Source: a virus
IMG/VR virus record: IMGVR_UViG_3300034082_002865
Span: 6,094-70,093 of that record
Direction: 5' to 3' (one strand)
Length of the DNA stretch: 64,000 nt
Below the pieces are notes generated by a model. The model saw nothing but the letters and a program-made list of their open reading frames with translations, was not told the origin of the DNA and searched no databases. This document shows, in pieces, positions 31,740-62,088 of this stretch; the first letter of the stretch is position 1; every line of letters starts with the position of its first letter. Both the position numbers and the translations under genes were made by a program.

Positions 31740-32140
31740 TTTTTTAATCCAAATTCTAAATCAAAGTAATGGCGGACTTGCGGAACTACACCTAATTCAT
31801 TATCAAACTGCCATCCACCGATACCATTTAATATTCGATGATATGTTTTGGGATCTGTTGAATAACTAACATAGTCAGGATCATTACCATATAGAAGATC
31901 GGGATCTTCTAAGTAATCAATAGGATCTCCTCCGTATATTTCGGACAGCCAGCGGGCGTAGCAAATACCTACCATATAGCTCTTTGCAGGCCAGATCCAT
32001 CCTATCTCAGTTGTCTTAAAATATTTTATTGCGTTATCCACAACGTCATCACTTATTTCTATATCAAAGTTACTTAGATCATCTATATGTGTAGGATTTA
32101 ATCTGTGATATATCTCTTGTTGAAATTTCCATTCTTTCAT
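31736..32140 (-). CDS. Hypothetical protein of the radical SAM cluster
   Basis: 134-aa ORF with ATGA overlaps on both sides; acidic DPDLLYGNDPDY motif. Confidence 0.6.
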   Translation of the reverse strand: MKEWKFQQEIYHRLNPTHIDDLSNFDIEISDDVVDNAIKYFKTTEIGWIWPAKSYMVGICYARWLSEIYGGDPIDYLEDPDLLYGNDPDYVSYSTDPKTYHRILNGIGGWQFDNELGVVPQVRHYFDLEFGLKK

Positions 32141-32565
32141 ATGATCTCTAATTTTTTACATATTTCTGTTATTTTATTAGATAGATACTTGTTAGTTAAG
32201 AACAATCTAAATAAAAATCTAGTCTCTAACCAAATTTTCTTATTATTCTCTACTTTTGCCACAGTTAACAATGTATTAAATGTTTTAAGAAGGTAATCGA
32301 TCTGATCGTTGTTGGGTTTAATTATTATAAAAGGACCGGTCAATACAAAATTTTTCCGATCTGTAAACAGATATTCTATAATACTATGGCCTTGACAACT
32401 ACCGGATGAAATATATCCTTTTGAATTTAATATCATTACAGCCTCTGCAATATTGGGATCTAATTGTTTAAGAAAATCCGGATGATTACTTTTAATTCCT
32501 GTCAAGCCTCTATAAGAATTTACAGATCTACATTTTAGGTCCGGGTCTGATCTATATAACTTCAT
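32137..32565 (-). CDS. Hypothetical protein with a D..I..V..LN..G....SCxGH motif (Tyw3-like N-terminal motif)
   Basis: LDPNIAEAVMILNSKGYISSGSCQGH. Confidence 0.45.
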   Translation of the reverse strand: MKLYRSDPDLKCRSVNSYRGLTGIKSNHPDFLKQLDPNIAEAVMILNSKGYISSGSCQGHSIIEYLFTDRKNFVLTGPFIIIKPNNDQIDYLLKTFNTLLTVAKVENNKKIWLETRFLFRLFLTNKYLSNKITEICKKLEII

Positions 32566-33466
32566 TTTTGTACCAGTTTAATAATAGTTTATAGCCATTA
32601 CAACTATGTGTCAAATCTTTAACATATCTATAATGCTCAGTTAAACATTTACCATAATAATTGCACGACTTGCAAATTTCGCTTGTATTCTTTTCCGGCT
32701 CGTCGATTGCCCATAACATGTATTCTTCTATAGAATCCAATGGCTTAAAATATTCTCTATCATTTAGATCAAATTCTAGTACGGCAAACTGACCAGTTGG
32801 CGTTATGTAAACATGATCATTACTAAACGCATTCTTTTCCCCTGCAAGAGATTTCTTTATATTATCTTCATTAACAAACTGGAATTTCTTTTTAATTGGA
32901 CTAGTAATCCAATTTTGTATAAAGTTTTCAAATTCTTTGTGTGTTACTTTGAAATCGTTCGCTTGATTGGTTGAGTAGGGTTTAATTTCTACAGATACTA
33001 AATTTGTTAACAAGTTCAATTGTGCTATCATGTTATCACTATCTTTTACTATAAGATCCGGACTTGCCAATATCAACACGGAAAACTCTCGAGGTAACAT
33101 CACCATGTTGTTCCAGACACGCTTATGCTGTTCTCTACACTCAAAATCATAGCTAACTGTAACATACATATCGGGATTAAGTATAACATCATTTACCATG
33201 CTTAGATTAGTAATAATGTTAATATCGTCAATACCGTATTTTGATAACATGTTGCACAAATCTGTAACATATTCAGTAGGAAGGATCCCTATCTCTCCAC
33301 CATATAAGTCCACCATATCTATGTTGTGGTATACTAATGTTTCTTTAATACGATTCTCCAACACATCTAACGACAGCAATTTTCGATCACTTAATTGTGC
33401 AGGTGTTAGATAGCAAAACTCACATCTAAAATTACAATAGTAACTTGGATTAATTGACAATATCAT
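32552..33466 (-). CDS. Radical SAM enzyme with C-terminal Cys cluster (SPASM/twitch-like)
   Basis: CNFRCEFC motif, YGGE, C-terminal CKSC....C...H...C. Confidence 0.9.
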   Translation of the reverse strand: MILSINPSYYCNFRCEFCYLTPAQLSDRKLLSLDVLENRIKETLVYHNIDMVDLYGGEIGILPTEYVTDLCNMLSKYGIDDINIITNLSMVNDVILNPDMYVTVSYDFECREQHKRVWNNMVMLPREFSVLILASPDLIVKDSDNMIAQLNLLTNLVSVEIKPYSTNQANDFKVTHKEFENFIQNWITSPIKKKFQFVNEDNIKKSLAGEKNAFSNDHVYITPTGQFAVLEFDLNDREYFKPLDSIEEYMLWAIDEPEKNTSEICKSCNYYGKCLTEHYRYVKDLTHSCNGYKLLLNWYKNEVI

Positions 33467-34530
33467 AGTTCTCTTACATATTCTGTGGGTATGAGTTGGC
33501 CAGTCATGCCGTTAGCTTCGATGATAGCAGGTGCAAGTGTTTTCATTTTAGCACAATGCAGTTCGACCATGCCATGCTCTTTCAAATCTTTAATAGTTTT
33601 TTTACAACCATTACAAATATCAAACATCGGGCAAGTGTAGCAACTCTGTTTAAGAGTTTGAAGTTCAGGTTGGAATCTTAAAGGAAATACTTTTTCACCA
33701 TCCATCTCTTGTTCAAAATCAATAGCATATTGCCTGTCATCTCCAAACGCTCCACAACTGTAATAATCTCCACTTGGCTGTAATGTCCTAATACCTTCGT
33801 CGCAATTTCTATTTTGAGGACATGTAGTAGTTTTACCTCTTAGTCGTTTAACCATCTGCTTGGTATTATATTCCCATTCAGTAAGCCCTTGCTTCCATAC
33901 GTTAACATATATCTCATATATATCGGCCAGCATATACGGGCGACCTTCTTGCCCCATTGTAATATTCTTAAACTTAACAGGTGGCCCGCTACTGAACGCA
34001 TAATTTAATTTACACTCAACATTCATTTTCTTAGCGAGTACTACATTATCGATAGCTGTTTGAGCATTCTCTTCAGTGATAACTGTGATAAAATCAGGAC
34101 GATATCCTATACGCTCCAGCATCATATTACTAACGTTCCAGAAATCTTCTTCACTGAATACTGTCAAGTCGCCCTTAAGGCGACCGCCACCGTATTGAAA
34201 GCTAGTCGTAATACCTAGGCGAGGATGTTTGAATAATGATTCCCACTTATTGGGATTTTTATAGAATGGCCAAAGATTACTAGTAAATGATATACCGGCA
34301 TTACTGCCTATTTGATCAAGATGTTCAATAATTTTCCAATAGTAGTCGGGACTCATCATCAATGGGTCGCCGCCATTAACTATAATTGTATTTGTCTCCG
34401 GATATCTTTCTAAAAACTTAAAGATATAAGAGTGATCTAACTCGGATGTTTTATCATCTGTAATGTATGTACTAGAACAAAATGTACATTTGAAGTTACA
34501 CTTTTCTGTTGGCTTTATAATTAATTCCAT
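33463..34530 (-). CDS. Radical SAM/SPASM enzyme
   Basis: IIKPTEKCNFKCTFC, GGDPL, C...C..GDYYSC...CYTCPMFDICNGC...C. Confidence 0.92.
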   Translation of the reverse strand: MELIIKPTEKCNFKCTFCSSTYITDDKTSELDHSYIFKFLERYPETNTIIVNGGDPLMMSPDYYWKIIEHLDQIGSNAGISFTSNLWPFYKNPNKWESLFKHPRLGITTSFQYGGGRLKGDLTVFSEEDFWNVSNMMLERIGYRPDFITVITEENAQTAIDNVVLAKKMNVECKLNYAFSSGPPVKFKNITMGQEGRPYMLADIYEIYVNVWKQGLTEWEYNTKQMVKRLRGKTTTCPQNRNCDEGIRTLQPSGDYYSCGAFGDDRQYAIDFEQEMDGEKVFPLRFQPELQTLKQSCYTCPMFDICNGCKKTIKDLKEHGMVELHCAKMKTLAPAIIEANGMTGQLIPTEYVREL

Positions 34531-36233
34531 TAAATCGTCTCTTCAACAACTAACAATCGAAACACTTCACTATAGATCATAGACTTGTTATTATCTATAA
34601 ATTCTTCCATAACAATAATCTTTAATCTGCCTTGTAATCGCTTTATGTTACGTGCAGGCGTATCCGGATTTAGAATGTCAACCGCTTCATTCCATATTAC
34701 ATCAAATCCGTCTAATCTTTTCATAACATTAAAACATGCTTTGCCAAACTCATTGGGACTAGCAAATTCACTAAGTGATTCATACAAGTGTTCTAATAGA
34801 TAGTTGCCTGCTATGTTCATAATCCACATCTCAACTGCCTGCTCTCGTGTAAACGAGAAACAGCTAGCAATTGTCTTGTAATACGTACTATTTTTTCTAT
34901 ATAGGCTATTAGAGTTGTCAACTCCGGAGTCGTCGACTACATCAACATATACTTCTACTAACTCTATGTTATACCGCTTTAGGTACTCGGGTCTGGATAA
35001 TTCTGAATCAGGTAAGAACATATAATCATGGCGTTGACTGTTCCACGCCTTGAAATTCCACAATATAGTCATTTCTCTATAGAAGTCTTCTAATGTAGAT
35101 CCGGGCATACCCATAATCAATTCAATATTAGGAATAGGATATCCTTCTTCATGACAGCGTTTGTTTATGTGTTCGCTTAGTTTAATCTTGTTCTCTAACG
35201 ATAGATCTATTCTGTTAGCAATCTTCATAGCAACTTCACTAACACTCTGTATGCTAATTGACGGGACAGTGTTAACAAACATTGGTAAATTTTTAGGATC
35301 GAACATTTTGCTATCATTGAGTTGATTAGAGTTAATACCTATAACACTAAACCAAGCATCTACTAATTTGATCCTTCTGTCCAAATCCTTGCTTTTCATG
35401 GTGCTAATATCAGTTAGCTTTACACCGTTCTCCCAACCAAATTTGAATATGGTAAGATCTCTTTCTAAGAATGCTCCAAAGTTAGCATCAGTTAAGAATG
35501 CTTCTGTGTAACCTGCTTTTTTTAATGCTAGTATGTCTTTCTCAACCACTTCAGTTGGCTTTTTATATATTTTACTGCCGATTCCGCCACCCCATTCACA
35601 AAAACTACACTGGTAAGGACAACCTCTGGTTGTTTCTAGGATCATAAAAGATTCTATATTATTAGCTATTGCATAATCTCTAGACTCTTTTAGAAATTCG
35701 TAGTGCTCTTCATAAACACTGTAGTCTGGCATAAATTGCGAACACTTCTTAAAACTACGTAGTTCCCAAGATATGTCATCGAGGTTGGGCTTTCCATTAG
35801 TTGCAATGTAACTATCAATTAGTTCTTGTACGAACACTTCGCCGGGCTTAGTAGGCTTTAAGATAAAGTCGTACATTGACCTAGTGGATAACAATTTAGG
35901 ATCGTTAGTTCCAATTTGTGGTCCTCCTAAAACACATAGCGCATTAGGGTTTAGTACTTTAACATGTTCAGCTAGTCTATCAATAATATCATAGTTCCAA
36001 ACATAGGAAGAAAACAAATATATATCAGCTTCTTGTATACCATCTTGATAAATGTCTTCTACTGTGTTGTATTGATTAAACTTGTAGGGAGCGGTTAGCC
36101 ACTCAACTTGAGTCACATTGTGGCCGTGTCGTGCGTAATAGCTTTGGAACATAAGATACGCAGCATTATTAGCAAGACTCCAGTCTGCATGTGGCGGATT
36201 AACGAACGCTATTTTTATTTTTGTCATCAGCAT
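34530..36233 (-). CDS. B12-binding-domain radical SAM enzyme
   Basis: N-terminal cobalamin-binding-like segment (FSSYVWN..VLGGPQ), ETTRGCPYQCSFCEWG, DANFG, ELIMGMPG. Confidence 0.88.
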   Translation of the reverse strand: MLMTKIKIAFVNPPHADWSLANNAAYLMFQSYYARHGHNVTQVEWLTAPYKFNQYNTVEDIYQDGIQEADIYLFSSYVWNYDIIDRLAEHVKVLNPNALCVLGGPQIGTNDPKLLSTRSMYDFILKPTKPGEVFVQELIDSYIATNGKPNLDDISWELRSFKKCSQFMPDYSVYEEHYEFLKESRDYAIANNIESFMILETTRGCPYQCSFCEWGGGIGSKIYKKPTEVVEKDILALKKAGYTEAFLTDANFGAFLERDLTIFKFGWENGVKLTDISTMKSKDLDRRIKLVDAWFSVIGINSNQLNDSKMFDPKNLPMFVNTVPSISIQSVSEVAMKIANRIDLSLENKIKLSEHINKRCHEEGYPIPNIELIMGMPGSTLEDFYREMTILWNFKAWNSQRHDYMFLPDSELSRPEYLKRYNIELVEVYVDVVDDSGVDNSNSLYRKNSTYYKTIASCFSFTREQAVEMWIMNIAGNYLLEHLYESLSEFASPNEFGKACFNVMKRLDGFDVIWNEAVDILNPDTPARNIKRLQGRLKIIVMEEFIDNNKSMIYSEVFRLLVVEETI

Positions 36234-37260
36234 AATTGTATACTTCTTTGAGCCAACAAGCTTCTTGTGTTCTTATCTTCTTAGTATGATTATTCATAAA
36301 GCAGCCAAACATACAATATTGCATGTGTTCACAGCTTAGGCAATCATAATCTTCTAACCATTTATCTTTGTGTTTAGTTAAGTTACCAAAGAATGTAACA
36401 ATTTGTTGTGTAGGTTTATTAGGTTTTATATCGTAAGGTGTGCATGAGTCTATATCAGCATTTTGCCTAACAGTAATAGTGCTCATACAGCTCAATGGCT
36501 GCGGCAATTTTCCTGTCATATCCTTAAACGGTTGACAGTTGGGCCAACGATCTAGCATAACTTTGTAAAAATCTCTCAGTTCAACATCAGACGGCATAAG
36601 GAAGTTACTAGTCCTAAAATTAGGATCGGGAAATAAGTCGCCGCCTTCGGGTGTGTAATGATCAAATGTTATTTCAAAGTTATTGTAAATGTAATCGAAA
36701 AAGGGTACATTATCCGACATAAATCTATCAATAGATGGCTTGGTCATAACACTACCTACAAACTTAATGTAGGGTTTGAACTGTGCTAAATTCTTCTTGA
36801 AGATTTCAAAATTCTCTGTATTAAAACGGCCTACAGGATCATAACTAACTGCTATCTGTATACCTACTCTATCTAAAAACGCAGTAACTCTTTCAGTCTT
36901 TTTCCAAACTAAATTAGTCGATATGTGCATTTCAGTCGGAAGGTCTATGCTTTTACCATATTCTCTAACCCTGTTGATAAGCAGTTCGTACTCATGAAAT
37001 ATGCTGTCAGGCAATTCATCCGCAAGTAATTCGCCACCCATAAAATTAACAGTGGTAGAAGTCTTGCCTTTCTTCTTAAGGGCAAGCATAGAGCTTGCAA
37101 CAAGATCAAACTTCTCAGCAATATTATTCATTCCTACCTTGGCTTTGTGGTCTTGATAGCACATTTGGCAGGATAGGTTACAATATTCGAATAAAATTAC
37201 TATTAACTCGCCGTGAGAATTGCTTTTTACCTTTACTGTGTCTAGAATAGAAGTGTTCAT
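36199..37260 (-). CDS. Radical SAM/SPASM-like enzyme
   Basis: CNLSCQMC, MGGE, C-terminal CLSCEHMQYCMFGC...C. Confidence 0.9.
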   Translation of the reverse strand: MNTSILDTVKVKSNSHGELIVILFEYCNLSCQMCYQDHKAKVGMNNIAEKFDLVASSMLALKKKGKTSTTVNFMGGELLADELPDSIFHEYELLINRVREYGKSIDLPTEMHISTNLVWKKTERVTAFLDRVGIQIAVSYDPVGRFNTENFEIFKKNLAQFKPYIKFVGSVMTKPSIDRFMSDNVPFFDYIYNNFEITFDHYTPEGGDLFPDPNFRTSNFLMPSDVELRDFYKVMLDRWPNCQPFKDMTGKLPQPLSCMSTITVRQNADIDSCTPYDIKPNKPTQQIVTFFGNLTKHKDKWLEDYDCLSCEHMQYCMFGCFMNNHTKKIRTQEACWLKEVYNYADDKNKNSVR

Positions 37261-37265
37261 GGATA

Positions 37266-37323
37266 TATTTATAGTAGCAGATTATGACGGAGAAATCAAC
37301 CATGTTTGGTATCCGCATAAATA
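37266..37323. promoter_or_regulatory. Divergent late promoters
   Basis: TATAAATA on the minus strand (37266-37273, 5 nt before ATG 37260) and TAAATA on the plus strand (37318-37323) followed by AGGAG/AAGGA before ATG 37354. Confidence 0.6.
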
Positions 37324-37353
37324 TATCAAAATATCCACTAGGAGAAAAGGACA

Positions 37354-38481
37354 ATGTTCCACTTATTTAGAAAAACTTATATTGAAATTGACAGATACAT
37401 CAATCCAAACGTAAATCGTATTGTAATTTCAGAAACAAACGGGTATCCAGTTTTAGAAATGTTTAGCAGCATTCATGTTGGTACACTACATGCATTTGGA
37501 CCAACTTACAACGAAATTGTAGGAGAAGGCAAGCAATTTAGTACATTTTTAGAAATGATACAATTTTGTTTTGATCAAAACGAATCAACTGATCAAAAGT
37601 TTATAATCTATTGCGATCCTGCTGCTTATATTAAAGTTATCTCGTTATGGTATAAGACTATGTTCGTAAACATTGATGCAGTGTCTGCATACAGGATCAC
37701 ACATGCTAATTTCTCTAAAGAGATTATGATCACACATAGAACTATACAAGGATTAGCAGATCAGTATGTTAACTTTTTACCAAATTTAGAAACATTCCAA
37801 CTTGTGTTTGAGTCAGTAACGGTTGATGATGCAAATGCATATGCGTTTATTAATGGGTTAGGTAACAATCGAAGTATAGAATACTTGTTAGCTGCATATA
37901 TATATGACGGAAGTCATAAAGACGAACTAAAGTTCAGATTATGGTCTATGATTAATAGGCACGTCGAAGAATACTTCAAAGAAGCTTGGAGATCAATTCA
38001 GTTAAATATCTTAAAAGAAAGCTGGCAATCTCTGTTAGGTACATTAACGTATACTATTGATAACATTGTAGAAGTATTAGATGATCCTGTACTTGAACCG
38101 CTAAAAAGGACTAATGCATGGCGAGCATCTTCAGGCGGTAGCAATGTTGCTAGAACTTCATTAGATTTATCTACATTTACTGAAGAAGAACTAATCCAAA
38201 TTAAGAATCTTGCCCATAAGACTTACTTACACACACTTCCGACAGATCCTGTTCACCCAGGTTTTGAAAGAAAACACGTTTATCTTGATATGATAAAGAG
38301 TCCGGGATTAACAGACGAAGAACTTATCCAGGTACTAGATTACGAAATAAATCCACCGGATGATTTACGTTTCTACTCTATGAAGGATGAGGAAACTATT
38401 AACGTGTACTTTATAGATTGGATCTTGGAAACAAGACGTAACAATAATATTGCAATATTACAGTCATATGTGTTAAAATAA
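37354..38481 (+). CDS. Hypothetical protein (375 aa) of the radical SAM cluster
   Basis: Long ORF with a Shine-Dalgarno site; no recognised motif. Confidence 0.7.
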   Translation: MFHLFRKTYIEIDRYINPNVNRIVISETNGYPVLEMFSSIHVGTLHAFGPTYNEIVGEGKQFSTFLEMIQFCFDQNESTDQKFIIYCDPAAYIKVISLWYKTMFVNIDAVSAYRITHANFSKEIMITHRTIQGLADQYVNFLPNLETFQLVFESVTVDDANAYAFINGLGNNRSIEYLLAAYIYDGSHKDELKFRLWSMINRHVEEYFKEAWRSIQLNILKESWQSLLGTLTYTIDNIVEVLDDPVLEPLKRTNAWRASSGGSNVARTSLDLSTFTEEELIQIKNLAHKTYLHTLPTDPVHPGFERKHVYLDMIKSPGLTDEELIQVLDYEINPPDDLRFYSMKDEETINVYFIDWILETRRNNNIAILQSYVLK

Positions 38482-38484
38482 TGC

Positions 38485-39159
38485 ATGATTAATGTTGGCA
38501 ATATCCTTAATAGTCCTGTAATTGAAGATCCGTGGCAACATAAAGAAGTAAAAAATGTTTTCAGACAAAACTTCTTTCAGCGGCTATCTGCCGAAGTGCA
38601 ACAGGTAAAAGACCATATACAAGTAGGGGACAACGGGCTGTGGATGTTTGAGGCAGTGCAGTTAGGCATTAGTCAAAGTCTAGTAGATGAAATATTTGAA
38701 GCAAACAAACAGTTCCTTAAAATATCTGCACAATTGATTAAACAGTTTAATACAAAGAACACTTCTCAGATAGGCTATTTCAGCATTCCTAGATTTAATT
38801 TTGTAAAACCCAACTACGTAGGTGAAATACACGATGACGGCGATACTAAAGAAAAGACTGTTATTATGACAACTTATCTGTATCCAAATCAATCTACAGG
38901 AACAAGGTTATATACACAAGAGGTAGAAAGTTCTTATCATAGTTCACTTAACTGGGAACCAAACAGTGCCCTAGTGTTTGCCCCTGTAACTGATGTTACA
39001 TGGCATAGTTTTAACTCAGGGCACAGCGAGCGAATAACACTGAGCTTCTTCTTTGAAAAGATAGAAAATATGGATTTTATAAATCGACTATCAGAAGAAA
39101 AAATTGAATGGTTCTACAACAACTTTGCTAAAGATATAATGAGTATCGAGTTAGATTAA
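38485..39159 (+). CDS. 2OG-Fe(II) oxygenase (paralog family)
   Basis: PWQH N-terminus, HDD..K...YL.P..GTRLY..W.PN..WH...R.T. Confidence 0.8.
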   Translation: MINVGNILNSPVIEDPWQHKEVKNVFRQNFFQRLSAEVQQVKDHIQVGDNGLWMFEAVQLGISQSLVDEIFEANKQFLKISAQLIKQFNTKNTSQIGYFSIPRFNFVKPNYVGEIHDDGDTKEKTVIMTTYLYPNQSTGTRLYTQEVESSYHSSLNWEPNSALVFAPVTDVTWHSFNSGHSERITLSFFFEKIENMDFINRLSEEKIEWFYNNFAKDIMSIELD

Positions 39160-39839
39160 ACTGTATGATGCAGTCTGTTTTGACCTAGCATATCATAGAA
39201 CCATAGCTTCCTATCCAACCCTAGTTTATCAAAATGCTCTAGTGATTCCATCTTTTCGTAGTACAGATTGAGCGTGTATCTTGATAAGCCGTTGCCTTTA
39301 TAACTATGCCAAGTAACCCCGGGTTGACTCATCATTAGCACAGCCCTATTTGGTTTCCATTCAACTTCTGTTACAAAGTTTGCTTCATCTGGTCCATTGT
39401 ACAAACGGGTACCTGCTGTCTGCTCAGGGATTAGGTAGATAACAAGGGCCATTGTCTTGCTTGTGCCCTCGTCGTGTATTGCACTGTTTAAGTTACCTAT
39501 AGAATAGTTGAATCTTGGTATATTATAGTAACCGACTTGCGAGTCAATGTGGTTAGGAAACTGTGTTAGTAATTCTTTGTTAATGGTTAACAGTTGATCC
39601 GCCATTAACGTAACATCGTCTGCTAGACTAGATTCTAATCCTAGTTCAACAAACTCATTAGGCCAGATTCCGTCTGCGTAGTACTGATCATCTTTTTCTA
39701 CAGATGATAGTAATGTTGCAGCCTTCCTGAATTTTTCAAATACTTCAGGAAGTAGTATATCATCAACTATCTTATAAGGCCACGGATTATTAATGATAGG
39801 AGCACCGACAATGGCTTCTAAATTAATTAGATTGTTCAA
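39156..39839 (-). CDS. 2OG-Fe(II) oxygenase (paralog family)
   Basis: HDE..K..IYL.P..GTRLY..WKPNRA..TWH...R.T. Confidence 0.8.
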   Translation of the reverse strand: MNNLINLEAIVGAPIINNPWPYKIVDDILLPEVFEKFRKAATLLSSVEKDDQYYADGIWPNEFVELGLESSLADDVTLMADQLLTINKELLTQFPNHIDSQVGYYNIPRFNYSIGNLNSAIHDEGTSKTMALVIYLIPEQTAGTRLYNGPDEANFVTEVEWKPNRAVLMMSQPGVTWHSYKGNGLSRYTLNLYYEKMESLEHFDKLGLDRKLWFYDMLGQNRLHHTV

Positions 39840-39841
39840 GT

Positions 39842-40567
39842 CTATGCCTGTACTGCTTCTAATTCTGCTTGGTGGGCGGCTGCAAAGTCTTTGCCTGTTA
39901 GTTGGCCACTGGCAATAACAGATGTTAAAACGTGCATAGGGTTATTGATGTTTGCCCAGAAATTATACAAGTTCTTACCTTTGAACATGTATTCGTTAAA
40001 ATACGATGTATAATTTGTTAACCACTCTGTGTTAATCTTATTATAGAACAAATAAAACTCTTCATATTTTAGAAGTTGGACAAAATTTATACCTGTTAGA
40101 TCGTCAGTCGGGTCTGATGGATGAGATTCAACAAACTCTCTAAACTCAGGAACATCGATAGTTTGCATATTGTAGATAGTTAAACTGTCTAATACTTTCG
40201 ACCATTGGTTAATAATTTCTTTATTTTCTTCTACAAACTTTGTCAGTTGAGCATTAGATAACATCTTACCTTCCGTTTGTGGAAGTCCAAATCTATTAGT
40301 AAACAACATTTCTAACGCAGCAATTTCTAGTGTACGAATCTGTACTAATATTTTTGAATTAAAATAGTCTTTTAATAACTCTAAGAACTCGTCATCAAAT
40401 TCTACATCAATATCACATGGGATATTAAGATTACTAAGGTAGATTAAAAGTTTACTACCTTTTAAGGTACTATTCTTATAATCAATTTCATATTGTACTG
40501 TGTTGTCAACGAAGTACTTTTTTAACCCATCCATTGGGATAGGAGCGGTTACTTTTATATTTTGCAT
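39842..40567 (-). CDS. Hypothetical protein immediately downstream of the CHxS protein
   Basis: 241-aa ORF starting 3 nt after the CHxS gene stop; no recognised motif. Confidence 0.65.
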   Translation of the reverse strand: MQNIKVTAPIPMDGLKKYFVDNTVQYEIDYKNSTLKGSKLLIYLSNLNIPCDIDVEFDDEFLELLKDYFNSKILVQIRTLEIAALEMLFTNRFGLPQTEGKMLSNAQLTKFVEENKEIINQWSKVLDSLTIYNMQTIDVPEFREFVESHPSDPTDDLTGINFVQLLKYEEFYLFYNKINTEWLTNYTSYFNEYMFKGKNLYNFWANINNPMHVLTSVIASGQLTGKDFAAAHQAELEAVQA

Positions 40568-40570
40568 TTA

Positions 40571-41158
40571 TTATCTCCTTGAACGCGAACTATGGCAAGA
40601 ACTGTGGCAACTTGCGTGGCAAACATTTACTGTAACAGTTTCGGTATTGTCTGAAAAATCAAGGTACAGTGCTCTAGCACGGTCAAATAAATCTTCTAAT
40701 CCAGCTCTTTCTATCCTTGCGCCAGTTAATGGCTGGCCTCTTGCTAACAACGCCGCATTTGTAGCGTAGATGTAACCAGTATTCAAATGAGCTTTACGTG
40801 TTTGATCAAAAATAATGCCGCCCGGTGTTCTTGGGCCAGCACTTGTGTTCCAAGGGGCACCGCCAGTTACTGTTACATTTAAGATAGCCCTCATGTTTCT
40901 AATATTTGAATATCTAAATGTTTCTGATAGCACACCATTGTAAATTGTTAAAGCAGCAACAAGACTGCCCCGGGCGCCGGCGCCCGATAACGAAGTTGGT
41001 TTGCCGCTAGTATCGCCGCCGAAATATGCTGCACTCAATTCTGGAAACGGTATTGCGTTTGTACCCCAAACAATGCCTGAATTAGCAGTTGCGACTACGT
41101 AGTCAGCAAATCTGTCAATTATGTTCTGTAATGTTACTGGATTGGTTAATGATGCCAT
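40571..41158 (-). CDS. 195-aa protein with C-terminal (Cys-His-x-Ser)3 tail; candidate substrate/precursor of the radical SAM cluster
   Basis: Ends ...TVTVNV-CHAS-CHSS-CHSS-RSRR; GAGGA Shine-Dalgarno and TATAAATA upstream. Confidence 0.75.
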   Translation of the reverse strand: MASLTNPVTLQNIIDRFADYVVATANSGIVWGTNAIPFPELSAAYFGGDTSGKPTSLSGAGARGSLVAALTIYNGVLSETFRYSNIRNMRAILNVTVTGGAPWNTSAGPRTPGGIIFDQTRKAHLNTGYIYATNAALLARGQPLTGARIERAGLEDLFDRARALYLDFSDNTETVTVNVCHASCHSSCHSSRSRR

Positions 41159-41169
41159 ATGTTAATTCC

Positions 41170-41865
41170 TCACCCTATATTTATATGTAGTCTACCTTGC
41201 CCGATCTTTTCATAGAACCATAACAACGAATTAAGGGAATCTTCATCTTCTCCAGGTTTATACAACGTATTTTGTAATGCTTCCATCCGTTCTACAAAAA
41301 AATTTAAGGTAATTCTTGGTTGGTCAGATTGTTGACCTTGCCAATTATGCCAAGTTACTCGATGTCCTGGATAAAATAATGCTGCCCTATTTGATTTCCA
41401 TGGAACTTGTGTAACAAAATCACTGTTGTTAGGGCCGGAATATAATCGAGTACCTACACTCTTTTCTGGTTGCAAATACGTTACTAAATTTAGTATTTTA
41501 TAAATGCTTTCGTCATGTATCGGATATTGAAAGTAGCGGCCTGTTATACCAAACTTTGGCATAATAAAGTAACTACCCCTAAATGCACCATTTAGGCAAT
41601 TTTCTCCTACTATCTCTTTTAGATTATACAGTATTAGATCAGCGGTGTCAAGTATCAAATTAGTTGCTTTGTCAGATATACCAAGGGCAATAGCTTCGTC
41701 AATATGTACCGGCACTGTTTTGTCCGATATACATAAATGAGACAAATGAGTAGCTGCTTGATTAATTATTTCAAAAGATTTATCATCAAATATATTATCA
41801 ATTATTTTATGAGACCAGGGGGTTGTTATTAACGGTGCATTGATAATATTGTTAATGTTTATCAT
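41170..41865 (-). CDS. 2OG-Fe(II) oxygenase (paralog family)
   Basis: PWSHKIIDN, HDE..K..TYLQP..GTRLY..WKSNRA..TWH...RIT; start set at MININ by analogy with 38485. Confidence 0.8.
   Translation of the reverse strand: MININNIINAPLITTPWSHKIIDNIFDDKSFEIINQAATHLSHLCISDKTVPVHIDEAIALGISDKATNLILDTADLILYNLKEIVGENCLNGAFRGSYFIMPKFGITGRYFQYPIHDESIYKILNLVTYLQPEKSVGTRLYSGPNNSDFVTQVPWKSNRAALFYPGHRVTWHNWQGQQSDQPRITLNFFVERMEALQNTLYKPGEDEDSLNSLLWFYEKIGQGRLHINIG
41178..41185 (-). promoter_or_regulatory. T4-type late promoter for the CHxS gene
   Basis: Perfect TATAAATA, 19 nt upstream of ATG 41158, inside the 3' end of the upstream gene. Confidence 0.6.
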
Positions 41866-42694
41866 CAGTAATCCATATATCATTTATTTTTGTAAATTTG
41901 ACACCGCCAAAAGTACACTTATTATTATCAAAAGAAATAATATCTTTGAAGAAAATTTTATGCTTTATATGTGATTCCCAATGATTTGGATCAATGCAAG
42001 TGATAAAATCTAACGAATATGTACAGTGAGCTAGTTTCAACGAATTATTTGCAATTTCAAAGTACGCATACTTGCCACCATCTTCACAAATTAATTTATC
42101 AGTTAATGTAGTTGCTTTTATCATAAAATCCTTAGACTTCTTAAATATTTTTAAGAATGAAATTGGATTAGTAATTTCTGTATAGGGTCGATTACAAAAA
42201 AACGGATCTTGATCTAAAAAATTATCCCATACGTAAAATATCTTTACACGATCTGTTGGTATAATATAAGATAGTACTAATAATCGAGCAGTACCAGGAT
42301 GTGCAATATACTTGTTATCCGCCGCCTGTAATAATTGTATAGGATTGTTAGTACCGTTTTCTTTTATATCTTTAATTACCCATCCTAGTTTTAATAGATA
42401 TCTTAGATGTCTATATTGTGGTGACCAATCTTTTCCGTCCCAAAAATCTGACTGCAATGCTAATTGATCAATATAGTTAAGATCTGATTGTCTTAATGTT
42501 TCAATATAATTACTAACTTCTTGTATAACATTAACACTAGTATATGCAAATAACTCATCTGAAGAAATATCAAAATACACTACTTTAGATTTTTTATTAA
42601 GAAAAAACCAACTTATGGCGGCGATATTTCTAAATAATCGACGTAACCAGCAGGTCACCTTATTCATATAATTGAGTATGGTGCCAATGTTCAT
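41852..42694 (-). CDS. Hypothetical protein with a ParB/Srx-like motif
   Basis: IKENGTNNPIQLL....KYIAHPGTARL resembles the ParB-N G..PI.....y.i..G..R motif; start set at the TAATG overlap at 42694. Confidence 0.45.
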   Translation of the reverse strand: MNIGTILNYMNKVTCWLRRLFRNIAAISWFFLNKKSKVVYFDISSDELFAYTSVNVIQEVSNYIETLRQSDLNYIDQLALQSDFWDGKDWSPQYRHLRYLLKLGWVIKDIKENGTNNPIQLLQAADNKYIAHPGTARLLVLSYIIPTDRVKIFYVWDNFLDQDPFFCNRPYTEITNPISFLKIFKKSKDFMIKATTLTDKLICEDGGKYAYFEIANNSLKLAHCTYSLDFITCIDPNHWESHIKHKIFFKDIISFDNNKCTFGGVKFTKINDIWITDDKH

Positions 42695-43389
42695 TATTTG
42701 TTTGTTGTTAGATGACCTTGCCCAAATTGGTCGTACAGCCAAATTAAATCTTCTTTAATATCAAACATCCCATCTTCATCTTCTAGATGTTGAGTCAATG
42801 TTTCCATCTTTTCAATTTCAAATTTAATAGTAACTCTTCCTGTGGAATTAGGATTATACCAATCATGCCAAGTCTCTTCATTCCTGTGAGGAGTCAACAT
42901 AAATGCTCGGTTAGGTTTCCATTCAAGTGTATGAGTATATGTATTCATATCATTTTCTGTGTAAAAATGAGTACCTAAGTTTTTCTCAGGGTACAGGTAT
43001 AATACAACAACCATTACTTTATTTGCACCATCTGTATGGATAGGAAAACGATAGTCTTTGCCAGTAATAGCAAATTTAGGCATACAGTAATATCCGTGGC
43101 GACTAGGATTAAAGTGATGGAATGGCTGTGCTAAGTTATGTATATTATCTAGAATGTTATCAGCAACTGAAATAATGTCGTTAATAGCTTCTTGGTCGAC
43201 GCCCAAATTTCTAGCTTGTCTTAACCACATACCTATATAAGTATTGTCTTCACTATATTGGCTAATATGTTCTGCTGCCTTGCTTACTCTTGTAAATGCA
43301 TCCGGACTTAAGAAGTTTTCAATAATTTTATGCTCCCAGGGAAAGTTGGTTATAGGAGTTTCTTGGATCTTGCTGGTAATATCGGTCAT
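42694..43389 (-). CDS. 2OG-Fe(II) oxygenase (paralog family)
   Basis: PWEHKIIEN, HTD..K..LYLYP..GTHFY..WKPNRA..TWH...RVT. Confidence 0.8.
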   Translation of the reverse strand: MTDITSKIQETPITNFPWEHKIIENFLSPDAFTRVSKAAEHISQYSEDNTYIGMWLRQARNLGVDQEAINDIISVADNILDNIHNLAQPFHHFNPSRHGYYCMPKFAITGKDYRFPIHTDGANKVMVVVLYLYPEKNLGTHFYTENDMNTYTHTLEWKPNRAFMLTPHRNEETWHDWYNPNSTGRVTIKFEIEKMETLTQHLEDEDGMFDIKEDLIWLYDQFGQGHLTTNK

Positions 43390-44432
43390 ATCTGTTTAAT
43401 ATTAATTATTTTGCGTTTATTTATAGATGCTAAATTGATCATCAAACTCTTAGGTGCTCCGCATATATCACCCTGCCATTCTAATTGATGACAATCGCTA
43501 TTGCAGTACTGGAACACTTCGCAATCATAGCATCTAGGATCTCTAGAACGTTCGCAGGTAATGTTTTCTAATCTCTGAGGGTTAGTCAATAGATCAGGAA
43601 TCATATCATTAATATGGCCAAATGCCTGTTCAGGTGCGCTGTTTGGACAGCCAGCAATAGTTCCATCTGCATTAACTGTGAACAGCTTTTCTTCGCAATC
43701 TCTACAGAAGGTGCCACCACCAGTAAATCCCGTTTCAAATTTTGTGTAAACTGATTCTAAAAATTCATTATCAAACCAGGATCTAGCATCATGTTGCTGA
43801 CTCTGTTCGTGCAACTTTAGGAACCACATGTCCTGCTCTATATTTGTGGGAAATATATGTAGATTAGCTGCGGCGGAACCATTCATAGTTAACCGCTCCA
43901 ATGCCAACTCAGTTACGCCTAACTCACGTACCCATTCTAACAAATCGATCGGTTCCATTGCAACAGTACCTTTAGTAACGCTGACAAATAGCTTAATAGT
44001 AACACCCAGATCAATTAGAGTCGTTACATTTTTACGCCAAAGGTCGTATTGCTTAGGGCTGGCAAAACGAATATCGGGATCCCAACTTGTTCCTATACGG
44101 CCGCCAAGTGGTCCCATAATAAAATCAATCTTATCTTGAGTTAGCTTGAAGGTAAGATTAGTGGTAATGCCCCAACTTTGACTGGGCCAAAGATCTTGAC
44201 AGTTATCGTACACATACTGTAAAGATTCTATGTCTGCAAGGAATGGCTCACCACCGTGAAATTCTAAATGTACATGTGGACTGGGCGCATCTTTAGATAA
44301 TCGTTGTAACCAGTCCGCGGTCTTAACATGATCCCAGTATATCTTTGCACCTTTGCTACCACTGGTAAAACAATGTAAACAATTAAGATTACAGGTTTCA
44401 GTTGTCTTTAGATAAATCAATAATTCTTTCAT
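43386..44432 (-). CDS. Radical SAM/SPASM enzyme
   Basis: YLKTTETCNLNCLHC, FHGGEP, CRDC..GTIAGCP...CYDCEVFQYCNSDC...C. Confidence 0.92.
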   Translation of the reverse strand: MKELLIYLKTTETCNLNCLHCFTSGSKGAKIYWDHVKTADWLQRLSKDAPSPHVHLEFHGGEPFLADIESLQYVYDNCQDLWPSQSWGITTNLTFKLTQDKIDFIMGPLGGRIGTSWDPDIRFASPKQYDLWRKNVTTLIDLGVTIKLFVSVTKGTVAMEPIDLLEWVRELGVTELALERLTMNGSAAANLHIFPTNIEQDMWFLKLHEQSQQHDARSWFDNEFLESVYTKFETGFTGGGTFCRDCEEKLFTVNADGTIAGCPNSAPEQAFGHINDMIPDLLTNPQRLENITCERSRDPRCYDCEVFQYCNSDCHQLEWQGDICGAPKSLMINLASINKRKIINIKQI

Positions 44433-44893
44433 CAGTATCCTACGCTAAGTGCCCAAGTGTTTGCTCTGCTGTGTACTTTATGAATGTGACGTCTAGGAAT
44501 ATAAACGCCTTGTCCCGGATTTAATATGATACGCTTATTTCTTAATAAGACTATCTTCTGTCCTTTGATCACATGTAGGTATACATTTACATCGTCTTTA
44601 TGCCAATTGAAGCTATAGCCGTATCGTTGAGCAACAAACAGATGTATATTTTTTATATCAAATCTAGCAAAGTTAACGGCAATGTCATTTACACTTTCTA
44701 GTCCCTCTACTTTGATTGCAGGGAATGTCTTGTACTGTTGTACCCAAGATAGATAGTCAAATTTCTCGTTGACTAGGCAATCAGCGTGTGGATGTCCTGG
44801 ATATCCTATTACCCTGATATGTTGATTTTCGTATCTATCGTAATCAACTAATAGATCTTTTGTTAACTGTAGTAGAGTTCGATTGCAAGTCAT
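44432..44893 (-). CDS. Cupin/JmjC-like oxygenase
   Basis: SFNWHKDDVNV...KGQK...LNPGQGVYIPRRHIH (HxD...H). Confidence 0.75.
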   Translation of the reverse strand: MTCNRTLLQLTKDLLVDYDRYENQHIRVIGYPGHPHADCLVNEKFDYLSWVQQYKTFPAIKVEGLESVNDIAVNFARFDIKNIHLFVAQRYGYSFNWHKDDVNVYLHVIKGQKIVLLRNKRIILNPGQGVYIPRRHIHKVHSRANTWALSVGY

Positions 44894-45536
44894 ATAATTC
44901 TGTTAGCCAATAGTCGGCCATTGGCACATTTCTGTATTCTTCAAAACAAGGAGATCCAAGTGTATAATGAATCAGCTTGGCATCTTTGTTGTCACCATAC
45001 TCATCTGCTAACCAATTCCATTCTGCAGGTATACTTCCTATTAATTTATCATCCAACCACTTGAACTGATGCAGGTATTGTCCGGTCTGTTGCTCAATCA
45101 TGGCAGGTGTTAGTACACTGTTTCTCTCGTGAGCACAGTTGATCAACATAACACTGCTCCAATTTTTTCTATTGTAATTTCTATTGGCATTACCCAAAAA
45201 CTTAATAGGACTAGATGTCTGATAATCATGTTGTACACACATAATAGCATATTTAGAATTAGAAAGCGACCAAAGCTGAGAGATATCTGTCCGGGCTAGC
45301 ATATCACAATCCATAAAGATTGCCCATCCTTTGTATCCCATCATGTAGGGAACTAAGAACCTACTGTAGCTAAATGCAGTACTGCCGTCAGTATGAGTTT
45401 CTGTATAGAAGTCCATACTTTCCAAATTTATTGGAATAATGCTGATTGGTTGGGAAGTTAGTCGTGTTAGACTATTTGCCAGCACGGCAAAGTTTAGGGA
45501 CTCTCTAGAATCGTACCCTACGAAAATTGGAATCAT
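44844..45536 (-). CDS. Glycosyltransferase (GT-A, GT8-like)
   Basis: IFVGYDSRE, FSYSRFLVP, DCD (DxD), RKNWSS, EWNWL, IHYTLG.P. Confidence 0.8.
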   Translation of the reverse strand: MIPIFVGYDSRESLNFAVLANSLTRLTSQPISIIPINLESMDFYTETHTDGSTAFSYSRFLVPYMMGYKGWAIFMDCDMLARTDISQLWSLSNSKYAIMCVQHDYQTSSPIKFLGNANRNYNRKNWSSVMLINCAHERNSVLTPAMIEQQTGQYLHQFKWLDDKLIGSIPAEWNWLADEYGDNKDAKLIHYTLGSPCFEEYRNVPMADYWLTELYDLQSNSTTVNKRSIS

Positions 45537-45544
45537 TTATAAGG

Positions 45545-45766
45545 TTACTTGCTGTCATGGTCAGGAAGTGGGCCGCCATAATGCTTACCGCGGATCTTCT
45601 TGCCCTTGATGTAGTTACCTTGGCCGTCTGTATGGCCTTTGCCTTTTGATTGATGAGCTCGGAGCCCTTGACTTACACAGCTAGAATGATCACTACGTCC
45701 TAGTCGTTTAGAACTGCGGCATAGTTTCGGATCAGTTTTTTCGGTAATAAATTCATGTGCTCTCAT
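45545..45766 (-). CDS. Small basic protein with MRAxEF leader
   Basis: MRAHEFITE...; TAAATA-AAAGC-ATG fixes the start at 45766 (the longer ORF-track start runs through a terminator). Confidence 0.6.
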   Translation of the reverse strand: MRAHEFITEKTDPKLCRSSKRLGRSDHSSCVSQGLRAHQSKGKGHTDGQGNYIKGKKIRGKHYGGPLPDHDSK

Positions 45767-45785
45767 GCTTTTATTTATTCTATCC

Positions 45786-45812
45786 AAAAGAAACCCCACC
45801 GAAGTGGGATTC
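45786..45812 (-). terminator. Intrinsic terminator after the hydrolase/membrane-protein operon
   Basis: Minus strand GAATCCCAC-TTCG-GTGGGGTTTCTTTT (UUCG tetraloop plus U tract). Confidence 0.8.
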
Positions 45813-45830
45813 CATTAGATTATGTTGCTA

Positions 45831-46157
45831 TTACCGGAATAGTATCAATCCCATCATCAATGTCTGCGCCGCAAATCCTAGACAGATTGTAGCAATATAG
45901 GCAAAGTTCTTTTCAATTAGACTCTTAAAGAACAGAGCAATCAACGCACTCCAAACAAAGATCATAAGATCTACGGGTGGCAATTTATCACTTTGCGCTA
46001 ACAACACTGCTAGTAACGTAGGCACACTAGCAAGATGTAACAGTATAATGGTAATCCATCCCAAAGTATTACCTGTAATACGCCCCAAATGGTCACGCAA
46101 GAAATACCAAATCCAACGCGGAGTTTGACTAACCAATTTCAAAATTTCTCGTTTCAT
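45831..46157 (-). CDS. Small multi-TM membrane protein (possible holin)
   Basis: 108 aa with about three hydrophobic segments, directly downstream of a cell-wall hydrolase. Confidence 0.5.
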   Translation of the reverse strand: MKREILKLVSQTPRWIWYFLRDHLGRITGNTLGWITIILLHLASVPTLLAVLLAQSDKLPPVDLMIFVWSALIALFFKSLIEKNFAYIATICLGFAAQTLMMGLILFR

Positions 46158-46962: not shown

Positions 46963-47112
46963 ATGTACGCTTATCAAGTTTGGATTCGACTCAATCCTTA
47001 TCAAACTGCTAATGTTGTAGTTCGAGCCAACAACGACTACGAAGCTAAGATGCTAGCTGAATCACAGTACGGTTCTGGGAATGTACTTAACTATACTAGA
47101 ATAAATGAGTGA
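46963..47112 (+). CDS. Small hypothetical protein (49 aa), absent from the ORF track
   Basis: MYAYQVWIRLNPYQTANVVVRANNDYEAKMLAESQYGSGNVLNYTRINE; GAAAGG SD and promoter upstream; overlaps the next start. Confidence 0.7.
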   Translation: MYAYQVWIRLNPYQTANVVVRANNDYEAKMLAESQYGSGNVLNYTRINE

Positions 47113-47887
47113 AGATCAAAATAGAAAACCGTTTGGCATAATTCAATCAAGGGGGCTAGGTGACATACTTATTGCCCTTCCTATAGCTCGATACTATCAC
47201 GATCGTGGTAGGCAAGTCGTATGGCCTGTGTGCGAGCAATTCCATAATTCAGTTAAAGATGCGGCACCATGGGTAACCTGGGTGCCCATTCCCTCAGATG
47301 CAGGCGGCAAATTCTTTTACGACCGTCCGTATTTTGAATTAGGTCGACATGGCTGCACAGAATGGGTATGCCTGTATCAAGCACTCAGCGGTCATCCGGA
47401 ACTTGTAGGTCGCCCTTACTTCCAAATACAAAAGTTTGACGAACACAAATATACTGCCGCTGGCGTTCCTTTTACACATAAATGGAAGCTTCGTGATTGT
47501 ATTACTCGCAATCAAGATCGTGAACAACAACTGTATAATCAATTAGTTCGAAGTCCCAACTACTATGTTACACACTTAAAAGGCAGCACATATCAAGCGC
47601 CGATAGATCTAAGTCATATTCCAGACGACTGGCAACGTATTGACGTAGATGATTGCTTAACTGAATCAGTATTTGATTGGATTAAAATAATCGAAGGAGC
47701 ACAGGCATTGATTGCCTTAGATTCCGTTATTGCTAATATGGTTGATCAATTGGATATTGATGTAGACAAATATTGGGTGCCAAGGAGTCACATACATCTT
47801 ACACCAGTGTTAGGATCTGTATGGACTATCCTAGAAGCGCCGGCTGATAGCATAGCCGCTAAACCAATCTTCGGAGCATCAAAATGA
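47105..47887 (+). CDS. Glycosyltransferase-like protein (GT9/heptosyltransferase-like)
   Basis: RGLGDILIALP N-terminal motif; W..IIEGAQALIALDS C-terminal motif. Confidence 0.6.
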   Translation: MSEDQNRKPFGIIQSRGLGDILIALPIARYYHDRGRQVVWPVCEQFHNSVKDAAPWVTWVPIPSDAGGKFFYDRPYFELGRHGCTEWVCLYQALSGHPELVGRPYFQIQKFDEHKYTAAGVPFTHKWKLRDCITRNQDREQQLYNQLVRSPNYYVTHLKGSTYQAPIDLSHIPDDWQRIDVDDCLTESVFDWIKIIEGAQALIALDSVIANMVDQLDIDVDKYWVPRSHIHLTPVLGSVWTILEAPADSIAAKPIFGASK

Positions 47888-48612
47888 AAATCTGGATTTA
47901 CTATCACATATATCAAATTCCCGGATGGGAACAACTTGTTGATGAAAAAATTGCAATGATGAAGGAAGAAGGTCTATGGGATGCAGCGGCAAAGATTGTC
48001 TTGCAACTACACGCTGATCCAGACAATGCATTAAGATGGATGTTATCACGAAACGACATACTTAAAGATAAACGTGTTATTGTTAGACGCCATATTGAAA
48101 TGTTTGGCATCATTGGTGTTTATCCTAGTTTTGCACCTGTACATGAAACATATTCCATAAGAGAACTACACGACGATTGCAATCTTGAATTAGATAATGT
48201 TGCAGTGTTCCGTTACCATACTAAGGGTGCTACACACTTGGGTAAAGAAACTTGGCCAGTGGCCGACAAGTGGAACAGATATCTGGAATACTGGAATATT
48301 AAAAAGTGGCGAGTATGCTATGCAGCGTTGCAAGCAGGATTTGACAGTGCTAGTTGTAATTGGCATCACGGCTGCTGGAGCGGAAATATTTGGTGGGCTA
48401 CTAGCAAATGGATCAAGACAATTCCTGTACTCAAATGGCCACACGAAAACGGTATGCAACAACAGTTAGAAGGATTCAGTGTTAGACATGATGCCGAGCA
48501 TTGGATTGGATACACCGGGCCAAAGACATTGGAATTGCATCACTTTGAACATGCTGTGGACTATAGATGGTGTCCTGAACCAGGCTCTTACGAATTAAGT
48601 AATAAGGTATAA
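47884..48612 (+). CDS. Putative glycosyltransferase-like protein (YHTKG...SGNxWW family)
   Basis: IYYHI, RYHTKG, WSGNIWWA, RHDAEHWIG motifs. Confidence 0.45.
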   Translation: MKIWIYYHIYQIPGWEQLVDEKIAMMKEEGLWDAAAKIVLQLHADPDNALRWMLSRNDILKDKRVIVRRHIEMFGIIGVYPSFAPVHETYSIRELHDDCNLELDNVAVFRYHTKGATHLGKETWPVADKWNRYLEYWNIKKWRVCYAALQAGFDSASCNWHHGCWSGNIWWATSKWIKTIPVLKWPHENGMQQQLEGFSVRHDAEHWIGYTGPKTLELHHFEHAVDYRWCPEPGSYELSNKV

Positions 48613-62003: not shown

Positions 62004-62011
62004 TATTTATA
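62004..62011 (-). promoter_or_regulatory. T4-type late promoter
   Basis: TATAAATA 5 nt before ATG 61998; a second TATAAATA at 62031-62038. Confidence 0.65.
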
Positions 62012-62088
62012 CACCAAAGTTATTAGTAGATATTTATAAAATCACAAGCTAGACCCCACGGAGCCTTCGCTGCATACATATACACACT

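Follow-up and report, generated by a model that had tools for sequence, protein, structure and literature searches.

A Cys-His-tailed protein and the conservation of its tail

The window analyzed here is a stretch of 64,000 nucleotides of viral DNA (positions 6,094 to 70,093 of the IMG/VR record IMGVR_UViG_3300034082_002865, a fragment of 70,093 bp with a CheckV completeness estimate of 37%). Its minus strand encodes a protein of 195 amino acids (aa), here called CHS (Cys-His-tailed protein), which ends in CHAS-CHSS-CHSS-RSRR and lies in a cassette of genes for radical S-adenosyl-l-methionine (SAM) enzymes (Table 1). A preliminary description of this DNA had pointed out that all the cysteines of the protein are in this tail, and indeed there are exactly three, each within the C-terminal 16 residues and in strict C-H-x-S period. 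Since the N terminus agrees with the family consensus M-A-T/S-L-T-N-P, we take the ATG at 41158 as the true start. The gene is present in one copy in the 70,093-bp fragment, and no terminator-like site was found 3′ of it, the next gene (p241) starting 4 nt past its stop codon. Scans of the Pfam and NCBIfam libraries assigned CHS to no family, and its match to phrog_35144 covers the C-terminal 47 residues only.

By sequence comparison, no other part of the protein is kept as well as this tail in what is a large, unnamed family of phage proteins. A word-indexed search returned 516 CHS homologs at E ≤ 0.01, a profile run exhaustively against 1.84 billion representatives returned 640 at E ≤ 0.001, and no names or Pfam domains were found among them. 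The pattern of three C-H-x-x units followed by a terminal R-x-RR was kept in 118 of the 120 best homologs, the two exceptions being a sequence truncated where its contig stops and another in which Pro replaces the third His, as well as in 134 of 145 further representatives at 50% identity. In the 80 related IMG/VR loci compared below it was present in 77, the other three being cut by contig ends. The invariant C-terminal columns of a 70-sequence alignment were V179, C180, H181, C184, H185, C188, H189, R192, R194, and R195. Among the 118 tail-bearing homologs, position 4 of the unit is Ser in 116, position 3 is G, S, N, or A and never Pro, and 102 have no Cys outside the tail. Mean identity to the window protein was 90% over the last 17 residues versus 50% in the body. 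Conservation of the tail, on which the preliminary description had staked its proposal, was thus what the homologs displayed. The number of units varies, with a two-unit tail in one representative (P0240) and 13 C-H-x-x units before RGRR in a contig described below (L085). A reading of the array as a heme c-type CxxxCH site was considered and dropped, given that no cytochrome maturation genes lie nearby and that neither the Ser nor the Arg positions vary.

The preliminary description had also argued from codon usage that selection acts on the peptide and that the tail is not a DNA microsatellite. Within the window this argument is weak, because units 2 and 3 are identical at all but 2 of their 12 nt, a 12-nt repeat (2.0 copies) is called by Tandem Repeats Finder at 40587-40610, inside the tail, and all three Cys codons are TGC. 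It becomes strong across relatives: the 66 distinct tail DNAs of the IMG/VR loci encode Cys by TGT or TGC, His by CAT or CAC, and Ser by both the AGY and TCN boxes, and selection on the peptide is indicated because the fixed residues use several codons.

A conserved cassette of radical SAM genes

To compare gene order, open reading frames (ORFs) were called in 80 related IMG/VR loci and matched to the window proteins. The cassette has a near-fixed order on one strand, namely, cupin-rS4-CHS-p241-p375-rS3-(B12-radical SAM)-rS2-rS1-p134-2-oxoglutarate (2OG) oxygenase, in which rS1 to rS4 are radical SAM proteins and the B12-binding enzyme is optional, and it is usually preceded by the gene of a protein of 1,700 to 2,400 aa. 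The gene rS4 was directly upstream of CHS in all 74 loci having an upstream gene, p241 was directly downstream in 69 of 70, and the order cupin-rS4-CHS was found in 59 of the 71 loci with two upstream genes. Of the 80 loci, 62 contained four or five of the radical SAM genes, the remainder being mostly short. The median identity of rS2 across loci is 62%, and p375 is on the cassette strand everywhere except in the window and in one other locus (L060).

The window cassette departs from the usual pattern in that five additional genes are inserted, three of which separate rS4 from CHS. The preliminary description had looked to the neighboring enzymes as those that would act on the tail; the genes directly adjacent in the window are lineage-specific insertions, but the tie to radical SAM/SPASM enzymes holds, the conserved partners being rS4, rS3, rS2, and rS1, the first of them directly adjoining CHS in relatives.

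TABLE 1 Positions of the CHS gene, its upstream signals, and the cassette genes in the window
Feature	Position	Strand	Remark
CHS gene, 195 aa	40571..41158	-	ORF
CHS tail CHAS-CHSS-CHSS-RSRR, final 16 codons	40574..40621	-	Translation
GAGGA ribosome-binding site	41167..41171	-	Sequence; 8 nt before the CHS ATG
TATAAATA, T4-type late-promoter-like motif	41178..41185	-	19 nt before the CHS ATG
TATAAATA, all copies	37266-37273, 41178-41185, 43418-43425, 62004-62011, 62031-62038	-	
Cupin/JmjC-like, first cassette gene	44432..44893	-	JmjC_2 and AraC_binding pass cut-offs
rS4, radical SAM/SPASM	43386..44432	-	CxxxCxxC; Fer4_12 and TIGR04085 pass cut-offs
Insertion between rS4 and CHS: two ~230-aa paralogs and a 296-aa protein	41170..43389	-	
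~230-aa paralog	42694-43389	-	
~230-aa paralog	41170-41883	-	
p241	39842..40567	-	phrog_20767 at 1.1e-58
~230-aa paralog	39156-39839	-	
~230-aa paralog	38485-39159	+	
p375, inverted here	37354..38481	+	Homologs in 67/80 loci
rS3, radical SAM/SPASM-like	36199..37260	-	phrog_1802 at 4e-41; 69/80 loci
B12-binding radical SAM, methyltransferase-like, optional	34530..36233	-	KedN5-family match; 36/80 loci
rS2, radical SAM/SPASM	33463..34530	-	Pfam Radical_SAM passes; 61/80 loci
rS1, radical SAM	32552..33466	-	phrog_1802 at 1.2e-30; 62/80 loci
p134	31736-32140	-	phrog_20737; 54/80 loci
2OG-Fe(II) oxygenase, cassette end	31179-31739	-	phrog_81; 52/80 loci

The radical SAM enzymes

All four proteins rS1 to rS4 were assigned to phrog_1802, and the CxxxCxxC motif is found in the translations of rS2, rS3, rS4, and the B12-binding enzyme. 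The best-defined one is rS4, a radical SAM/SPASM maturase by its cluster motif (C14-x3-C18-x2-C21) and its SPASM domain (TIGR04085, 30.3 bits against a cut-off of 27); it also passes Fer4_12 (22.5 against 22), and its Pfam Radical_SAM score (21.5) is below the cut-off of 29.5. The best full-length NCBIfam matches of rS4 and rS2 are both peptide-crosslinking maturases, PapB for the former (NF047865, 1.1e-12, 47.8 bits against a cut-off of 340) and DynA for the latter (2.4e-12, below cut-off). The matches of rS3 are weak ones to the PapB and QhpD types, and the B12-binding protein matches the KedN5 family at 9.8e-28, below its cut-off. A search of Protein Data Bank (PDB) sequences with rS4 gave one weak match, tetraether lipid synthase (E of 1.8e-4). 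No recognition element (RRE) family of ribosomally synthesized and posttranslationally modified peptides (RiPPs) was reported in the Pfam and NCBIfam scans of the cassette.

Upstream signals

A T4-type late-promoter-like motif, TATAAATA, and a GAGGA ribosome-binding site had been said to precede CHS, and both were located, 19 and 8 nt before the ATG, respectively, the former within the 3′ end of the preceding ORF. The motif is not enriched in the window (5 copies observed versus 7.35 expected). Each of the five lies on the minus strand, 5 to 32 nt ahead of the start of a minus-strand ORF, and only 1.6% of the strand-positions are within 45 nt of an ORF start. Judged by this placement, the motif resembles a late promoter set at a defined position. 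Two copies end 5 nt before the called ATG (those of rS3 and of a 143-aa ORF), and these starts may be miscalled because the motif ends so close to them. Of the 63 distinct upstream regions of relatives, 17 have the motif at most 70 nt upstream of CHS, the sequence around it being of several kinds, and 42 lack it. The suggestion of a promoter-like motif proper to this gene therefore extends beyond the window, and it is plausible that CHS has its own late promoter here and that such a promoter is common, not universal, in the family.

Homologs in other lineages and in virus particles

A tblastn search of 50,697 phage records with the 195-aa CHS gave no match at E ≤ 0.01, and neither did a megablast search with positions 36000-46000 of the window find one. 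The CHS homologs of jumbo phages were reached solely via rS4, which has homologs 42 to 48% identical in 15 cultured jumbo-phage records. In Atu_ph07, the order is cupin (gp172), rS4 (gp171), gp170, a p241-like gene (gp169), and rS3 (gp168), followed farther on by rS2 (gp165) and rS1 (gp164), while the annotation of RSF1 lists a cupin (ORF069), a radical SAM protein (ORF070), and ORF071, followed by more radical SAM proteins and a 2OG oxygenase. Both gp170 of Atu_ph07 (296 aa) and ORF071 of RSF1 (186 aa) carry the same terminal tail, and the Atu_ph07 protein structurally matches the CHS model (BFVD, E of 5e-8). The enzymes are much better kept than the CHS body, with E values of 1e-149 for rS2 and 3e-119 for rS4 versus 2e-12 for CHS.

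A scan of 185,579 species genomes found three more loci, although it used motifs from the T4-like subfamily and may have missed others. The contigs from a Marinovum and a Methanobacteriota metagenome-assembled genome (L083 and L084) hold the complete cassette in the usual order, from the cupin to the 2OG oxygenase, and are probably viral contigs misbinned into these assemblies. The third (L085, a contig of 4,268 bp in an assembly of Dysosmobacter segnis) has at 3-362 the 13-unit tail mentioned above, arranged as repeated V-(CHxS)(CHxS)(CHSN) blocks with an RGRR end, followed by homologs of p241, p375, rS3, and rS2. Since its ends resemble library-adaptor and poly-G artifacts, this contig may stem from a contaminating phage and not from a bacterium.

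The virion association of CHS, at first only a supposition, gained support from a homolog with the same tail: gp170 is listed in the published virion proteome of Atu_ph07 (Attai et al. 2018, Table S5, PMC6102473), with 8 unique peptides and 35% coverage and at a mass of 31.89 kDa, which is also the mass computed from the translated gene (P0122). According to this table, gp170 was found in gel slices 1 to 9 and peaked in slice 1, the top one, which otherwise held proteins of 75 to 139 kDa (slice 13 held the smallest ones), and the other proteins of 25 to 40 kDa with at least three peptides, among entries gp57 to gp707, all peak in slices 4 to 13 (PMC6102473). In the same range of entries, gp164 to gp169 and gp171 to gp175, which include the homologs of the radical SAM proteins, the cupin, and p241, are not listed (PMC6102473).

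We consider it probable, at about 60%, that the CHS tail is the substrate of the radical SAM/SPASM enzymes of the cassette and is borne by a protein destined for the particle. A more far-reaching version, in which the phage pathway would install a new crosslinked Cys/His structure and join this particle protein covalently to the giant fiber, other proteins of the virion, or the host surface, is one that we put forward only tentatively, and rate as doubtful; covalent joining would explain the top-slice peak of the 31.9-kDa Atu_ph07 homolog.

Another explanation is that the tail is left unmodified and oligomerizes or anchors the protein in the particle, either through disulfides or by binding Zn, Fe, or Cu via its three Cys-His pairs, while the radical SAM enzymes have a different target, for example, the giant fiber protein or a small molecule. 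Cys/His arrays are known in general to bind metals, the 102 homologs (of 118) without any other Cys are in line with such a role, and a top-slice peak of gp170 in a buffer without reductant is the pattern expected of intermolecular disulfides (PMC6102473). On this account, however, the strict link with rS4 in 74/74 loci would have no obvious reason, and a simple Cys/His site leaves both the Ser at position 4 (116/118) and the invariant R-x-RR unexplained. The unit number, ranging from 2 to 13, is likewise at odds with it; because this number varies, one modification per unit fits better than a single metal site. We regard this explanation as unlikely.

The detection of gp170 in a particle preparation that lists none of the enzymes, as far as the table covers them, also bears on whether CHS might be an accessory of the enzyme set, for instance, one that carries Fe-S clusters for the four or five radical SAM proteins or serves as their scaffold. 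Its Cys-rich end and its constant position amid genes of Fe-S enzymes would suit such a task, but an accessory would hardly be expected in particles, with a late-promoter-like motif of its own and a variable number of repeats, and we hold this to be very improbable.

Predicted structures

Structure prediction of CHS alone agreed with the preliminary description as to a folded body but gave no defined structure to the tail. The AlphaFold2 model has an alpha/beta body, a mean pLDDT (predicted local distance difference test) of 85, and a last strand (residues 172 to 180) that leads into the tail, where pLDDT drops to 42 to 50. This fold has no evident counterpart among solved structures: Foldseek found no match of the model in the PDB at E ≤ 0.001, the best hit of the VIA wide search (Z of 5.0) was to a designed protein and nothing in that search was meaningful, and a sequence profile search of the PDB with CHS gave nothing below an E of 0.03. 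The same was true of the p241 model (pLDDT of 91), with no PDB matches by Foldseek at E ≤ 0.001 and a best VIA Z of 4.5 over residues 1 to 55 only. The ESM Atlas gave no usable lead for either p241 or p375. A prediction of the complex of CHS and p241, run without controls, scored 0.00 against a mark of 0.32, a value that speaks neither for nor against binding.

The folded body is relevant to a further alternative, in which CHS would be a carrier whose C-terminal core is modified and then excised as a small peptide or cofactor acting in or outside the infected cell. In pyrroloquinoline quinone (PQQ) and mycofactocin, the core is modified and then excised from its carrier. The location of the array at the extreme C terminus would suit this scheme, as would the many tailoring enzymes (four or five radical SAM proteins, the cupin, and the 2OG oxygenase), and the conserved p241 and p375 could include a protease. 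Nevertheless, no protease family was detected in the Pfam, PHROG, and NCBIfam scans of the cassette, and a body that is conserved and folded and has a homolog in particles is unlike a disposable leader. An excised product thus appears improbable to us.

Comparison with known systems

The preliminary description had related the tail to the His-Xaa-Ser systems of bacteria. In the HXS anti-phage system, HxsA, with five HxS repeats, is matured by the radical SAM enzymes HxsB and HxsC together with HxsD, and a change of +8 Da was mapped to one S-H-R-S-S motif of HxsA (Li et al., Nat Commun 2026, PMC13128918). The two systems are alike in having a whole protein with tandem His-Xaa-Ser units in a basic context and more than one adjacently encoded radical SAM enzyme. 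They differ in that HXS is bacterial and defends against phages, while the CHS cassette is phage encoded, and in that the CHS units add an invariant Cys and form an array at the extreme C terminus that is followed by R-x-RR. In addition, no signal peptide or peptidoglycan-binding domain family was matched in CHS. The tandem units are certainly present (H-A-S, H-S-S, and H-S-S in the last 16 residues, with the His kept in 118 of the 120 best homologs). In spite of them, membership in the HXS system was not upheld by the family models. The best score for HxsB (TIGR03978, cut-off of 370) was 34.8 bits for the N-terminal 97 residues of rS4, and those for HxsC (TIGR03977, cut-off of 267.9) were 25.8 bits for rS2 and 21.4 for rS4. 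No matches at E ≤ 0.01 to TIGR03979 and TIGR03976, which we take to be HxsA and HxsD, respectively, were found among the 18 cassette proteins scanned, CHS itself matching no family.

The cores on which PapA/PapB-type systems act have a Cys at intervals of a few residues, and one thioether is formed per unit, the substrates of PapB having Cys-x3-Asp units. The resemblance of the cassette to these ranthipeptide systems lies in PapB (NF047865) being the best match of rS4 and in rS3 and rS4 both touching the "CXXX-repeat target" family TIGR04115. However, the scores are far below the cut-offs (47.8 versus 340 and 26.2 versus 350), the CHS tail offers no Asp acceptor, and CHS is a folded protein of about 195 aa with a homolog in virus particles, not a short secreted peptide, so we do not assign it to this type. 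The three-residue cyclophane ("triceptide") maturases XyeB, GrrM/OscB, and AmcB are weakly matched by rS1 to rS4 (E of 1e-6 to 6e-3). Triceptides follow a logic of an aromatic residue, any residue, and a third residue in tandem, with one ring per unit made by a radical SAM/SPASM enzyme. The H-x-S/N of CHS fits this motif logic, but the matches are again far below cut-off and the invariant Cys has no counterpart. More generally, the usual RiPP precursor is short and has a removable leader, with an RRE in the maturase or a partner; CHS has 195 aa and a folded body (pLDDT of 85).

Radical SAM/SPASM enzymes whose target is a Cys of a protein subunit, and not of a RiPP, are also known, as in the QhpC/QhpD pair of quinohemoprotein amine dehydrogenase and the anaerobic sulfatase maturase, whose site is C-x-P/A-x-R; the last CHS unit, C-H-x-S-R, is loosely reminiscent of it. 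Matches to these enzymes were obtained for rS3 (QhpD, TIGR03906, 9.7e-7) and for rS2 and rS4 (sulfatase maturase, TIGR03942, 4.9e-11 and 1.1e-8), although all score far below the cut-offs, CHS has no sulfatase or dehydrogenase body, and position 3 of its unit is G, S, N, or A and never Pro.

Parts of the cassette have been seen before. Radical SAM cassettes have been reported in the host-recognition cluster of pelagimyophages (PMC7029224), a cyanophage radical SAM gene has been labeled an "antibiotic synthesis gene" (PMC12801897), the cupin, radical SAM, and 2OG genes of phage FLC6 have been listed (PMC8066314), and arrays of dioxygenases have been described in cyanophages (PMC2938197); the portions of these papers that deal with the genes in question do not mention a Cys-His tail. 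Our literature search found no paper on this tail or on the cassette as a protein-maturation system.

Proposed role of the tail

We propose that CHS is a late particle protein with a folded body of about 178 residues and a flexible tail, V-(C-H-x-S)x3-R-x-RR, and that this tail would be modified by the phage's own radical SAM/SPASM enzymes, rS4 acting first and then rS3, rS2, and rS1. Tailoring might be done by the cupin/JmjC oxygenase, the 2OG oxygenase, and sometimes the B12-dependent radical SAM methylase. Each C-H-x-S unit would probably become a small covalent ring, by way of a Cys thioether and/or a carbon link from His to residue 3, comparable to those of ranthipeptides and of three-residue cyclophanes. 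The outcome could be a rigid, basic, and chemically unusual protein end, and the modified protein may be built into, or covalently joined to, the fiber or host-recognition part of the particle.

A number of points speak against modification of the tail. Cys and His are classical metal ligands, and our literature search found no paper in which the mass or the metal content of the tail was measured. The low pLDDT of the tail (42 to 50) gives no structural backing to it, and in the window itself the three inserted genes separate CHS from rS4. The matches of the radical SAM proteins to named maturases are all far below the NCBIfam cut-offs, and homology therefore does not reveal the chemistry. As to the particle evidence, the sample buffer described for Atu_ph07 was without reductant, for which reason the top-slice gp170 could be disulfide linked and not enzyme crosslinked, and the preparation, purified with polyethylene glycol (PEG), also lists proteins that are plainly not structural, among them a topoisomerase, a ribonucleotide reductase, and a RecA-like protein (PMC6102473).

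Inserted genes and other genes of the window

Two of the four ~230-aa paralogs that interrupt the window cassette lie after p241 (38485..39839). The genes inserted between rS4 and CHS each have a homolog in only 1 of the 80 loci, L060, and the paralogs on the p241 side are likewise shared only with L060, where the arrangement differs. The four paralogs are mutually 33 to 37% identical and share an H-x-D/E ... H pattern, and their family matches, to 2OG-FeII_Oxy_3 (E of 0.045) and DUF6445, are below threshold. A family-8 glycosyltransferase gene (44844-45536, minus strand), directly upstream of the cupin, is also common to L060 only.

The structural genes of the window are closest to those of T4-like cyanophages (about 42% identity). 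An ORF of 3,945 aa (6774-18611, minus strand) has collagen-like/tail-fiber repeats, with 20 stretches matching phrog_5073, and is flanked by fiber-like ORFs of 850, 837, and 872 aa. Two unannotated ORFs of 260 and 242 aa (47105-48612, plus strand) are located between an endolysin-like gene and that of a 951-aa structural protein. The opposite strand (28770-29291, plus strand) carries, between the structural genes and an ATP-dependent DNA ligase gene, a gene for an HNH endonuclease, likely a mobile insertion.

Significance

That bacteria mature ribosomal peptides with radical SAM enzymes is well established, and HXS is one recent case of a matured protein effector. The same logic is met here in phage genomes, fixed near fiber and structural genes in both marine T4-like phages, whose closest relatives in culture are cyanophages, and soil jumbo phages. 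If the tail is indeed modified, particles can bear enzyme-made crosslinks that are missed by standard proteomics and structure prediction, and the conserved 16-residue tag with its four dedicated enzymes would lend itself well to the study of new radical SAM chemistry. If, further, the tentative view of a covalently joined particle protein proved true, a virus particle would for the first time be seen to carry a radical-SAM-dependent posttranslational modification, and the bacterial HxS effector would have its counterpart on the phage side. For the phages themselves, a modified tail would add a testable component to the host-recognition region of abundant ocean phages.

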